Shown here one piece after another: positions 10,585 to 13,722 of a stretch of 43,242 nucleotides of DNA. The notes beneath the pieces are model-generated. The model was not told the origin of the DNA, did not search any database, and worked only from the letters and a program-made list of their open reading frames with translations. Position numbers and translations under genes: made by a program. The stretch covers positions 1 through 43,242 of the forward strand of contig JBFMCP010000028.1 of assembly GCA_040754455.1 (NCBI GenBank), written 5' to 3'. This DNA comes from Nitrospirota bacterium. Its GTDB lineage: Bacteria > Nitrospirota > Thermodesulfovibrionia > Thermodesulfovibrionales > Dissulfurispiraceae. Numbering within the stretch: position 1 is the first letter of the stretch; each line of letters begins with the position of its first letter.

Positions 10585-10846
10585 AGGTTCTCTCGCACTA
10601 GAATAGAACGTTTTCATGTTTTGTGAGTGCTGTTTTTAAGGGTTTGCAGTGAGCAGTTTCCCGCATGCTTAAGCGCCATTTTCTAAAAAGGTTATCTGAG
10701 GTATTCAGGACCGTGCCCGCGAGGGACTTCCGTTTTAAAATCAAACATTATATTACCATATTCCCGGGGTTTAGGCAATTTACGAACAGGCCTTGCACAC
10801 GAGGACAGAGGGAGGTGCGGAAAGGAGCTTTCGAGAGGAATCAAAC

Positions 10847-10896
10847 AGTAAAGAGCAAAATGAAAAAATATGTGATACTTAATTTTGCTCTTTGCT
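10847..10896. repeat. Inverted repeat of the CAAAAT/ATTTTG heptamer family upstream of polA
   Basis: AGTAAAGAGCAAAAT ... ATTTTGCTCTTTGCT, 15 bp with one G-U pair. Confidence 0.7.
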
Positions 10897-10955
10897 TTCC
10901 TTCCCCTGCCTTCACCCACGTACACATATCTTCATCCCGGCCCAACAAACGCTTC

Positions 10956-10964
10956 TGTTATAAT
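10956..10964 (+). promoter_or_regulatory. Extended -10 promoter directly before polA
   Basis: TGtTATAAT ends 5 nt before the ATG at 10970; no SD present. Confidence 0.55.
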
Positions 10965-10969
10965 TAAAT

Positions 10970-11893
10970 ATGAACCTCTATCTTATTGACGGAAGTTCCT
11001 ACTTCTACCGGGCGTATCACGCCATCAAGCGGTTATCCAATTCAAAGGGATTTCCCACCAACGCCATTTACGGGTTCACGAACATGCTCTTCAAGATCAT
11101 CAAAGACCGCCGGCCCGGCGCCCTGGCGATCACCTTCGATTCAGCCGTCCCCACTGAGCGGCACCGGATCTATGAGGAATACAAGGCGCAGCGGCCCGAA
11201 ATGCCCGGAGATCTCGCTGTCCAGATCCCTTACATAAAAGAGATCGTAAAGGCTTTCAACGTCCCTTTATTTGAGATACCGGGCTGCGAGGCCGACGATA
11301 TTATCGGCACTATAGCGAAGAAAGCCGCAGCGCAGGGAGCAACGGTCTTTATTGTGAGCGGTGACAAAGATATGATGCAACTGGTGCAGGAAACGATAAA
11401 GATCTACGATCCCCTGAAGGATACGGTCATCGATGAGGCACAGGTGCGGGAGCGTTTCGGAGTCCCACCCGAAAGGATTCCCGAGATCATGGCGTTGACC
11501 GGCGATGCGGTCGACAACATTCCCGGAGCAAAAGGGATCGGCGACAAGACGGCAAAGGAACTGATCCGGAAGGCCGGGACCCTTGATGCACTCCTGAGCC
11601 ATCCCGAAGCCATAGAGAAAGAACGGATACGACGGCTGATAACGGAGAGCATCGAAAATATCAAGCTAAGCAGGGTGCTCGCGACGATCGATACCAATCT
11701 GCCGATCGAAGTAGACCTCACCGATCTCGCCGTGCGCGAGCCCGACTGGCCGGCGCTCCTCCGCCTCTTCACCGAATTCGAATTCAAGAGCCTGATAAAG
11801 CTCATCCCTGCGCACGGGACGCCGTCGAGAGGCCAGTATCTTACTATTACCGACACCGAACAACTCCTCGAATTCCTCGGAATATCGTCATGA
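10970..11893 (+). CDS. polA: DNA polymerase I, N-terminal polypeptide (5'-3' exonuclease/flap endonuclease)
   Basis: LIDGSSYFYRAYHA, TNAIYGF, YKAQR, EADDIIGT, SGDKD, GDAVDNIPGAKGIGDKTA. Ends at TGA overlapping the next ATG. Confidence 0.93.
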   Translation: MNLYLIDGSSYFYRAYHAIKRLSNSKGFPTNAIYGFTNMLFKIIKDRRPGALAITFDSAVPTERHRIYEEYKAQRPEMPGDLAVQIPYIKEIVKAFNVPLFEIPGCEADDIIGTIAKKAAAQGATVFIVSGDKDMMQLVQETIKIYDPLKDTVIDEAQVRERFGVPPERIPEIMALTGDAVDNIPGAKGIGDKTAKELIRKAGTLDALLSHPEAIEKERIRRLITESIENIKLSRVLATIDTNLPIEVDLTDLAVREPDWPALLRLFTEFEFKSLIKLIPAHGTPSRGQYLTITDTEQLLEFLGISS

Positions 11894-13722
11894 AACAGCA
11901 TTCATTGTTTGAGGACGACAACAACCGTAACGAGTTGTCAGGAACGGGTAATGGGTTAAACAAAGAAAAAATCAACGATACCTCATCACGCATTACTCAT
12001 CACGCACCACTTACTGAGTTATCCTTTGATGTCGAAGCTACCGGAACAAATCCGCTATCGGACATTGTCGTGGGGATCGCGCTCTGCAAGGAAAAGGGCA
12101 CTTCTTATTATGTCCCCCTGCGCCATACCCAGGGGCCCAATGTCAGCAATGCACTGGACATTCTCAAAGGAGTTCTTGAGGATGCGTCGATCCCGAAGAT
12201 AGGGCACAACCTGAAATACGACATACTCATATTGCGCAAAGAGCACATTGCCGTCAGGGGAGTGCTCTACGACACGATGGTAGCTTCCTACCTGCTCAAT
12301 CCCAACAGGACGAGCCACAGTCTTGAGGAGGTCGGCCTCGAATATCTCTCCCATAAGAAGAGGGCCTTCCTCGAGGTGCTCGGAAAGCACGGCACCTTTG
12401 CGGAAGTCCCGGTTCCCGAGGCCACCCTGTATGCTGCCGAGGATGCGGCCCTCGCGATGGAACTGAAAGAGCTCCTCTTCGAACAGCTGAAGGCAAGAGG
12501 TCTTGAGCGGTTATATTTTGAAATTGAAATGCCGCTGATCTATATCCTTGCTGATATGGAGGAGGCAGGGATCAAGGTTGACAAGGAGCGGTTGGAGGCG
12601 TTATCGCGGGAGCTGGAGCAGGAGCTGGAAGGATTGCAGCAGAAAATCTATACCCTCGCCGGTTCCACCTTTAATATCAATTCGCCCCGTCAGCTCTGCA
12701 AAGTGCTCTTCGAGGACCTCGGGTTGAAGCCGCTCAAAAAGACAAAGACCGGGTACTCCACGGGAATGGATGTGCTTGAGGAGCTGGCGAAGAGCCATGA
12801 GATTCCCGGAGAAATCCTCAACTACCGGACGCTCTATAAATTGAAGACCACTTATGCGGACACCCTGCCCCACCTCATTAATGAGCGGACAGGGAGAATC
12901 CATACCTCTTTCAACCAGACCATAACCGCGACAGGGAGATTGAGCAGCAGCGATCCCAATCTTCAGAACATTCCGGTTCGGGGAGAGTGGGGAACGAGAA
13001 TACGGGAATCTTTCATAGCGGAAAAAGACAACGTGCTCATTTCAGCCGATTATTCACAAATCGAGTTGAGGATCCTGGCGCATGTAAGCAAAGACAGGGG
13101 GCTGGTCGATGCCTTCGCACACGATGTGGATGTCCATGCAAGGACCGGGGCCGAGCTCTTCGGCGTGCCGGTCAAAGCGATCACCGGCGATATGCGGAGG
13201 ATTGCGAAGACGGTAAACTTCGGAGTCGTGTACGGGATAAGCCCCTACGGGTTGTCCGAATCCCTCGGCATCACCCCCAAGGAAGCAGCGCATTTCATCG
13301 ATCAATACTTCAAACAGCATCCCGGGGTAAAGGAATACGTGGAGACTTCGATCAAGACAGCACAACAGCAGGGATACGTCTCGACCCTGCTCGGGAGGAT
13401 CCGTCCCATTCCTGAAATCAACAGCACCAACGCCTCCTCCAGACAGCAGGCCGAACGGCTGGCGGTCAACACTCCCATCCAGGGGACAGCCGCCGATCTG
13501 ATCAAACGGGCAATGATCAATGTCTCACGACAGCTGCGAGAAGAAGGGCTTGCAACGCGCATGCTCCTTCAGATCCATGATGAACTGCTCTTCGAAGCGC
13601 CGGCGCAGGAGTTGGAGAGGGCCGTCGAGATAATCCGCTACGAAATGGAGCACGCCCTCACCCTTTCAGTGCCGCTTAAAGTCGAGATCGGCTGGGGAAA
13701 AAGCTGGGCAGAAGCCCACTAA
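11890..13722 (+). CDS. polA: DNA polymerase I, C-terminal polypeptide (3'-5' exonuclease + polymerase) with a ~42-aa novel N-terminal extension
   Basis: ExoI FDVE, ExoII GHNLKYD, ExoIII YAAEDA; TATGRLSSSDPNLQNIP; motif A DYSQIELR, motif B RRIAKTVNFGVVYG, motif C QIHDE. Confidence 0.93.
   Translation: MKQHSLFEDDNNRNELSGTGNGLNKEKINDTSSRITHHAPLTELSFDVEATGTNPLSDIVVGIALCKEKGTSYYVPLRHTQGPNVSNALDILKGVLEDASIPKIGHNLKYDILILRKEHIAVRGVLYDTMVASYLLNPNRTSHSLEEVGLEYLSHKKRAFLEVLGKHGTFAEVPVPEATLYAAEDAALAMELKELLFEQLKARGLERLYFEIEMPLIYILADMEEAGIKVDKERLEALSRELEQELEGLQQKIYTLAGSTFNINSPRQLCKVLFEDLGLKPLKKTKTGYSTGMDVLEELAKSHEIPGEILNYRTLYKLKTTYADTLPHLINERTGRIHTSFNQTITATGRLSSSDPNLQNIPVRGEWGTRIRESFIAEKDNVLISADYSQIELRILAHVSKDRGLVDAFAHDVDVHARTGAELFGVPVKAITGDMRRIAKTVNFGVVYGISPYGLSESLGITPKEAAHFIDQYFKQHPGVKEYVETSIKTAQQQGYVSTLLGRIRPIPEINSTNASSRQQAERLAVNTPIQGTAADLIKRAMINVSRQLREEGLATRMLLQIHDELLFEAPAQELERAVEIIRYEMEHALTLSVPLKVEIGWGKSWAEAH
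11927..12014. repeat. Heptamer-repeat inverted hairpin element inside the polA coding region (GTAATGA/TCATTAC family)
   Basis: Left gtaacga-gttgtca-ggaacgg-gtaatgg; right ctcatca-cgcatta-ctcatca-cgcacca; A-rich loop. Translated as ...SSRITHHAPLT. Confidence 0.75.

Follow-up and report, generated by a model that had tools for sequence, protein, structure and literature searches.

DNA polymerase I (Pol I) is the textbook single-chain enzyme with three activities, and it is usually assumed to operate without a defined clamp-binding motif. A 43,242-nucleotide (nt) stretch of a Nitrospirota genome of the family Dissulfurispiraceae (contig JBFMCP010000028.1, assembly GCA_040754455.1; hereafter the window) raises the question of what becomes of this enzyme when its gene, polA, is divided between two overlapping open reading frames (ORFs). 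ORF1 ends in ...YLTITDTEQLLEFLGISS-TGA, and ORF2 opens in the -1 frame at the ATG of a shared ATGA. An initial annotation, made from the sequence alone, had described this overlap, the frame relation and the ORF boundaries, all of which we re-derived, and had proposed three readings: a two-subunit Pol I reassembled by fold complementation, a recoding event, or a 1-nt assembly error in a gene carrying a repeat insertion. It is nearly certain that the split is real and that the locus contains two genes. Comparison of sequences makes it quite probable that ORF1 and ORF2 rebuild a heterodimeric Pol I, with the C-terminal tail of ORF1 inserting into the exonuclease domain of ORF2, and it moderately favors the view that the fission brought a new disordered ORF2 extension whose QxxLF tip binds the beta sliding clamp (DnaN).

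Together, the two ORFs contain everything expected of Pol I. ORF1 carries both 5'-3' exonuclease domains (PF02739 and PF01367), and ORF2 carries PF00476 (5.9e-164) along with PF01612, the latter matching only positions 16-172 of a 173-position profile. The flap endonuclease (FEN)-like, DEDDy DnaQ-like and family A polymerase domains that characterize Pol I orthologs are thus all present, and the departure from the usual definition is that they lie on two ORFs rather than on one polypeptide. Orthology to fused Pol I is indicated by 52-63% identity to the fused proteins of the same order, within which the split clade is placed. The exonuclease motif residues D47, E49, N107, D111, Y181 and D185 are conserved at 90% or more across 20 ORF2 sequences, in agreement, for the exonuclease part, with the initial description of intact catalytic motifs. 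A second intact polA elsewhere, which that annotation had raised as a possible refutation, did not appear in a search of the genome, which is scored 100% complete and in which ORF2 is the sole match to PF00476.

Four of four contig sets, originating from three studies and with depths of 13.9 to 564, span positions 11600-12200 in one piece and without an indel; the check was made at the level of contigs instead of raw reads, and the window may itself derive from two or three of these runs. Two of the four sets represent other strains, with 1 and 3 substitutions. One strain variant, 11889 C>T (depth 564), replaces the last residue of ORF1 (S to L) and leaves both the ATG and the TGA intact.

The split extends well beyond these strains. 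In a first comparison with 41 relatives of the window, the open frame around the polymerase measured 597-730 amino acids (aa) in 22 of 22 strongly matching genomes of the family, as against 850-1121 aa in all 16 genomes from 12 sister families of the same order, where polA is a single gene of ~880 aa. A 301-genome sample of the phylum displayed the same pattern, bar one re-fused member of the family (L041). Among the odd short-frame cases in this sample, five were fetched and G247, G191 and G089 were left uninspected; the five comprise three truncations at contig ends (L043-L045), one frameshift elsewhere (L042) and the family re-fusion. The frame change in L042 (G106, from another family of the phylum) lies near the equivalent of ORF1 residues 278-290, unlike the family split site, and is confined to a single genome in which it could reflect sequencing error or a pseudogene. 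Each of the best 120 database homologues of ORF1 has a length of 292-325 aa and comes from a family member; one of them is named, from Dissulfurispira thermophila. The split is common to all examined members of the window's family, except two later re-fusions, and the alignment of relatives' polA that the initial annotation had called for finds the extra N-terminal residues of ORF2 to be common to the family as well. An assembly error of 1 nt or a decaying pseudogene, suggested by the fact that one indel near 11890 would join the two frames, retains practically no probability against four concordant contig sets, a family-wide split, a pair of genes that forms the only polA of a complete genome, and Pfam matches in which both halves score at full length.

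Recoding, by programmed -1 ribosomal frameshifting or otherwise, would yield a single Pol I of ~100 kDa, and the window offers it one point of support, in that the -1 frame of ORF2 is open for 101 codons upstream of the ATG. Against it, this frame opens merely 2-12 codons ahead of the ATG in 10 of 14 relatives with adjacent genes, and no X XXY YYZ slippery heptamer occurs in 11587-11893. The frame relation is also inconstant: junctions among named relatives consist of a 4-nt overlap, a 1-nt overlap, or a gap of 7-8 nt that places ORF2 in the +1 frame. One or the other overlap is found in most relatives with adjacent genes, and the ATGA is kept in the strain variants. Furthermore, the genes are separated or unlinked in nine genera. 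They are adjacent in 14 family loci, and seven loci have no ORF1 within 1.5 kb of ORF2; ORF1 lies 1.2-1.9 kb from ORF2 on the same contig in four genera and on a different contig in five (a contig end falls near one of the genes in G002 and G010, so that distance alone is shown there). In every separated or unlinked genus, ORF2 begins at the same M-x-Q-x-x-L-F. Unlinked genes, variable frames and the missing heptamer make programmed frameshifting untenable as a general mechanism, leaving recoding with a very slight probability, and the combination of a family-wide split with genes that are separated or on different contigs rules out assembly error and programmed frameshifting alike.

The DNA that lies between the two genes in four genera is varied, encoding N6/N4 DNA methylases, an IS200-like Y1 transposase and a HicB/HicA pair, and insertions seem to land at the polA junction repeatedly. 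At one locus (L013:1501-3303 (-), in G018), ORF2 has CTG in place of ATG at the conserved start, and an unrelated ORF ends, in the same frame, immediately upstream of it.

The initial annotation had located the break inside the proofreading fold, and three views agree: the start of the PF01612 match at profile position 16, alignment with Klenow fragment, and the superposition of a modeled relative. Residues 15-283 of Taq Pol I align with ORF1 residues 4-277, and ORF2 residue 44 aligns with residue 29 of the Klenow chain, in the FAFDTE strand, so ORF2 is without the first 28 Klenow residues. A MAFFT alignment of 23 split ORF1s and nine fused sister proteins places the end of ORF1 3-6 residues ahead of the sisters' ExoI strand, with its last ~20 residues corresponding to the Y-E-T-V...L..I..S segment of those proteins. 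In an AlphaFold2 (AF2) model of the relevant segment of the fused relative L057 (13-sequence alignment; mean predicted local distance difference test score [pLDDT] of 84.4), the equivalent of the ORF1 tail is a strand at 33-36 followed by a helix at 40-47 (block pLDDT, 92 and 87). This model superposes on Klenow (1kfs_A) from residue 324 (Z 26.2, root mean square deviation of 1.9 A over 215 residues) and also on stand-alone nucleases of the same fold, such as NrnC, from their residues 1-4. As judged from the model, ORF1 retains the first strand and helix of the exonuclease fold, equivalent to residues 324 through about 346 of Klenow, and the break lies between residues ~346 and 352, within the exonuclease domain and off the border between exonuclease and polymerase. 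An AF2 model of ORF2 (20-sequence alignment, mean pLDDT 83.6) is confident except in residues 1-38, which have pLDDT below 50 and no secondary structure, so the N terminus of ORF2 itself is not predicted to stand in for the missing strand.

The segment of the proofreading fold that remains on ORF1 has been maintained throughout the family. The tail is present in 23 of 23 ORF1s, among them all nine that are not adjacent to ORF2, with L299 in every sequence, Y290 in 22 of 23, and a clade-specific R-G ahead of the tail strand (R287 in 22 and G in 19 of 23). Its mean pairwise identity is 0.41 (253 pairs), compared with 0.34 (36 pairs) for the same columns of the fused sisters. The tail pattern is matched by 117 of the best 120 database homologues of ORF1, the other three being visible variants, and it persists where the catalytic residues of ExoI have been lost (L016, L025 and L030). 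These features suggest that the tail is under selection for a structural role, the simplest of which would be docking into the exonuclease domain of ORF2. Its retention even where the genes are unlinked leads us to infer that the two proteins are subunits of Pol I that dock through fold complementation, the best fit among the three readings with which the analysis began. The overlapping genes are probably made by translational coupling, after which the ORF1 tail would insert into the exonuclease domain of ORF2 and complete its fold.

Catalytic residues of the ExoI strand have been lost in five family members (L016, L025, L030, L055 and L066; sequences FTIETA, LDIVAA, ITLRAM and FGIEAT), all of which retain the tail and QxxLF.

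Alternatively, ORF1 and ORF2 may be independent enzymes that form no stable complex, the former a solo flap endonuclease and the latter a Klenow-like polymerase, with the tail either a leftover or of service to ORF1 alone. Solo FEN nucleases that replace the missing 5' nuclease of polymerases are widespread, as described in one report (PMC12926913); the two genes are unlinked in several genera; and ORF2 is modeled with confidence when it lacks the tail. We consider this alternative unlikely in view of a tail that occurs in all 23 ORF1s and in the best 120 homologues, at a level of conservation at least that of the fused sisters. The tail is, moreover, a core element of the PF01612 fold, there from residue 1-4 in stand-alone nucleases (NrnC), and its loss would leave the ORF2 sheet short of one edge strand.

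Between the start of ORF2 and its first exonuclease strand lie residues without counterpart in the sister families. The initial annotation had estimated ~42 of them (43 residues precede LSFDVEAT) and had placed in the extra ~120 nt a hairpin or repeat insertion at 11927-12014, which the sequence does not bear out. The folding energy of 11927-12014 is -12.4 kcal/mol (z -0.43), and 61 of 200 shuffled sequences are at least equally stable; folding of 11880-12040 gives z +0.66, and no tandem repeat was found in the stretch. A structured RNA or repeat insertion at this site was therefore rejected, its fold energy and repeats being no better than chance. By comparison among relatives, the extra ~120 nt is instead a family-wide coding linker and not a private insertion. 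In 35 ORF2s the linker is 11-42 aa long (median, 29), rich in S, E and P, and unalignable; it is fast-evolving and predicted to be disordered. In the window, its G+C content is 0.40-0.44 as opposed to 0.50-0.63 in the flanks. The fused sister proteins contain neither the extra residues nor the QxxLF motif.

Whereas the initial annotation noticed the additional residues of ORF2, it overlooked the conserved QxxLF at their N terminus. Q..LF begins at residues 3-6 in 35 of 35 ORF2s, and at residue 3 in 32 of them; in all 20 aligned ORF2s, Q3, L6 and F7 do not vary, and no further column is invariant until G62. The codons within the motif vary (CAG in 10 and CAA in 11 cases for Q, all six codons for Leu, TTT in 15 and TTC in 6 cases for F), and this synonymous variation indicates selection on the peptide. 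The motif resides in a flexible region, with pLDDT below 50 in ORF2 residues 1-38 and in linker residues 53-79 of L057, and the re-fused proteins keep it as an internal loop (QYALF and QQTLF). A Q-x-x-L-F at a flexible terminus agrees with the consensus for clamp binding in bacteria, QL(S/D)LF (PMC9690074), and would keep the polymerase subunit attached to clamps that remain at the ends of Okazaki fragments.

It is possible, though doubtful, that the QxxLF tip binds another partner, such as ORF1 or single-stranded DNA-binding protein (SSB), or that it serves translation initiation and not the clamp, given that its second position is off consensus and that it adjoins the start codon. Synonymous codon variation speaks against an RNA or initiation signal, and the survival of the motif as an internal loop in two re-fusions, where a tether to ORF1 is needless, speaks against ORF1 as the partner. 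Two further observations favor the clamp: the same class of motif has been modeled on DnaN for PolA2 (PMC12926913), and an identical pentapeptide ends the DNA ligase of this genome.

The ligase emerged from a function-blind scan that covered the 3683 ORFs of 150 aa or more in the window's genome, in which Q..LF occurs within the first 12 residues of 8 ORFs and within the last 12 residues of 5. When the ten other ORFs with terminal motifs were searched against Pfam, domains were found only in a membrane NrfD protein and in a PNPOx ORF that is probably mis-started, and this weeding left ORF2 and the NAD-dependent DNA ligase. The ligase (682 aa, Pfam-confirmed; L160:501-2546 (-), equivalent to G000:C16:26782-28827) ends in ...SPRQHSLF, its C-terminal QHSLF being identical to ORF2 residues 3-7, and the LigA ends of five of five close relatives read QASLF, PRLF, QQKLFS, PRLF and LRLFE. 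The correspondence is circumstantial, sequence-level evidence that ORF2 and LigA, both of which complete Okazaki fragments, have a terminal hook in common.

Two other proteins of this genome bear on the clamp. DnaE (L159) reads CGPGLFGDF at residues ~916-925 of its open frame; we take GPGLFGDF to stand where E. coli alpha has QADMF, in which case it would be an internal clamp motif lacking Q. In addition to DnaN itself (L126:1501-2607), the genome has a 784-aa ORF (L127:181-2535 (+), in G000:C2) whose C-terminal half is another DnaN-like sequence (TIGR00663, 163 bits), possibly the clamp of a mobile element, and whose N-terminal half resembles a methyltransferase.

Several points count against a docked, clamp-bound Pol I. 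The AF2 models are built on shallow alignments (20 and 13 sequences), and the tail could be retained for a reason internal to ORF1. Shine-Dalgarno-like words (GGAG- or AGGA-like) precede ORF2 in only 9 of 21 loci. The second position of the motif varies (H, F, Y, C, P, A, K, R, G or E) and is never the consensus L, and E. coli Pol I is reported neither to bind the clamp nor to possess a motif for it (10.64898/2026.09.19.751633). Finally, ..LF ends only 13 of the 35 LigA C termini examined in the order (8 of 30 across the order), 3 of 9 LigAs of the family have no ..LF end, and neither terminus of the DinB-like protein of this genome (L157) bears the motif. On balance, comparison supports the two-subunit Pol I well, and the clamp hook is plausible but unproven. 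That the whole package of two genes, docking and clamp hook represents an old, selected fission of polA we regard as likely.

The history of the split was reconstructed from 54 polymerase parts with the extension removed. Split and linker-bearing sequences form a clade with 97 support in the Shimodaira-Hasegawa-like approximate likelihood ratio test (SH-aLRT), and the two fused proteins with a linker, L057 and L068 (the same as L041), are nested in different split subclades with support of 100 and 99. The unconstrained tree put two canonical fused proteins with dead exonucleases, L072 and L076, inside the split clade. Because a constraint that groups all 37 split or linker-bearing sequences improved the likelihood by 17.3 log units and was not rejected (P = 0.869, approximately unbiased test), this placement was taken as a search artefact. 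The most economical history is a single fission accompanied by the linker and motif, followed by two re-fusions and several separations by inserted DNA.

No prior report of this polA split was found in the searchable literature, which does not extend to subscription journals. The nearest known kinds are solo FEN nucleases, a split phage PolA and the clamp motif of PolA2. Solo FEN-like 5'-3' exonucleases that accompany a family A polymerase lacking that domain resemble the present pair in that nuclease and polymerase are separate proteins and the nuclease function is kept (PMC12926913). They differ in that here the cut is off the domain border, ORF1 has ~20 residues of the exonuclease fold that are missing from ORF2, and each gene is recognizably one half of the orthologous Pol I found in sister families. 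In T7-like cyanophages, the exonuclease and polymerase of PolA are encoded by two genes whose products are modeled to reassemble, so that a family A polymerase again arises from two genes; the phage split is at the exonuclease/polymerase border (PMC10201439), whereas the present one is cellular, falls within the exonuclease and comes with a new linker and motif.

Clamp motifs in bacterial family A polymerases have two precedents. In actinobacterial PolA2 (APEX), the vestigial exonuclease domain has an unstructured loop with the motif 120-QSSLF-124, which AlphaFold models on DnaN and which is described as the first motif of its sort in a bacterial family A polymerase (PMC12926913). Both motifs are of the same class and occupy a disordered segment attached to the exonuclease domain, but PolA2 is described there as a paralogous, single-chain, exonuclease-dead enzyme, unlike the ORF2 motif, which is N terminal on a Pol I ortholog with intact exonuclease motifs. 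Mycobacterial Pol I has a clamp motif, 457-QLSLLDD-463, that is reported from Mycobacteriales only (10.64898/2026.09.19.751633); it, too, is a Pol I ortholog with a lineage-restricted clamp motif (a candidate one in our case), and it differs in lineage and in the position of the motif in the protein.

In the Okazaki fragment maturation of eukaryotes and archaea, polymerase, FEN1 and ligase each bind PCNA (PMC9690074). By analogy, and tentatively, the family may possess a bacterial counterpart of the PCNA tool belt, in which ORF2 would sit on the clamp by way of its N-terminal QxxLF, ORF1 would dock reversibly by a detachable strand-helix plug, and the ligase, with its identical pentapeptide, would compete for the same pocket. 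The likeness, if the idea is true, lies in a polymerase subunit and a ligase with clamp hooks and a separate flap nuclease; unlike the PCNA system, ORF1 has no clamp motif. Under this scheme, exchange of subunits, and not one polypeptide, would govern how gap filling gives way to flap cutting and then to sealing.

A whole bacterial family has thus long relied on a Pol I that is cut inside a folded domain. It presents a natural test of protein-fragment complementation in an essential enzyme, of how tight the coupling of 5' nuclease and synthesis must be, and of whether clamp tethering of Pol I can evolve upon a change of architecture, with the two independent re-fusions that keep linker and motif as built-in controls. 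ORF1 is currently annotated as "hypothetical protein" or "5'-3' exonuclease H3TH domain-containing protein," and since the split can be mistaken for a frameshift or a pseudogene, the pair merits a proper name.

Features of the split polA locus (positions in the window, except for the last row, which refers to relatives)
Feature	Position	Strand	Description
ORF1	10970..11893	+	307 aa; 5'-3' exonuclease/flap endonuclease, proposed subunit of split Pol I; PF02739 2.1e-62, PF01367 8.1e-28
ORF1 C-terminal tail, residues 285-307 (PSRGQYLTITDTEQLLEFLGISS)	11822..11890	+	First strand and helix of 3'-5' exonuclease fold, from models; proposed docking element
ATGA	11890..11893	+	ORF2 start codon overlapping ORF1 stop codon
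ORF2	11890..13722	+	610 aa; Klenow-like, proposed subunit: 3'-5' exonuclease without first strand and helix, plus polymerase
QHSLF, ORF2 residues 3-7	11896..11910	+	Candidate beta-clamp-binding motif; Q3, L6 and F7 invariant
Linker, ORF2 residues 8-43	11911..12018	+	Predicted disordered; variable in length and sequence; holds the formerly proposed hairpin
ExoI strand LSFDVEA (D47, E49)	12019..12039	+	Aligns with Klenow FAFDTE; strand 44-50 in AF2 model
Family A polymerase domain	12586..13713	+	PF00476 positions 2-381 of 381
Cargo between ORF1 and ORF2	L048:3881-4831; L032:2564-3856; L050:3942-4649; L038:1634-2081		

Directly 5' of ORF1, a 100-aa ORF at 10665-10967 (+) sits in the divergent intergenic region beside a ROK kinase gene; it has no Pfam match and is probably not a gene. 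The surroundings of the split polA are those of an ordinary chromosome, with ribBA, a CHASE2 cyclase, riboflavin synthase, signal peptidase, lepA and the ROK kinase upstream, and HU, a universal stress protein, glutamate synthase and transketolase downstream.

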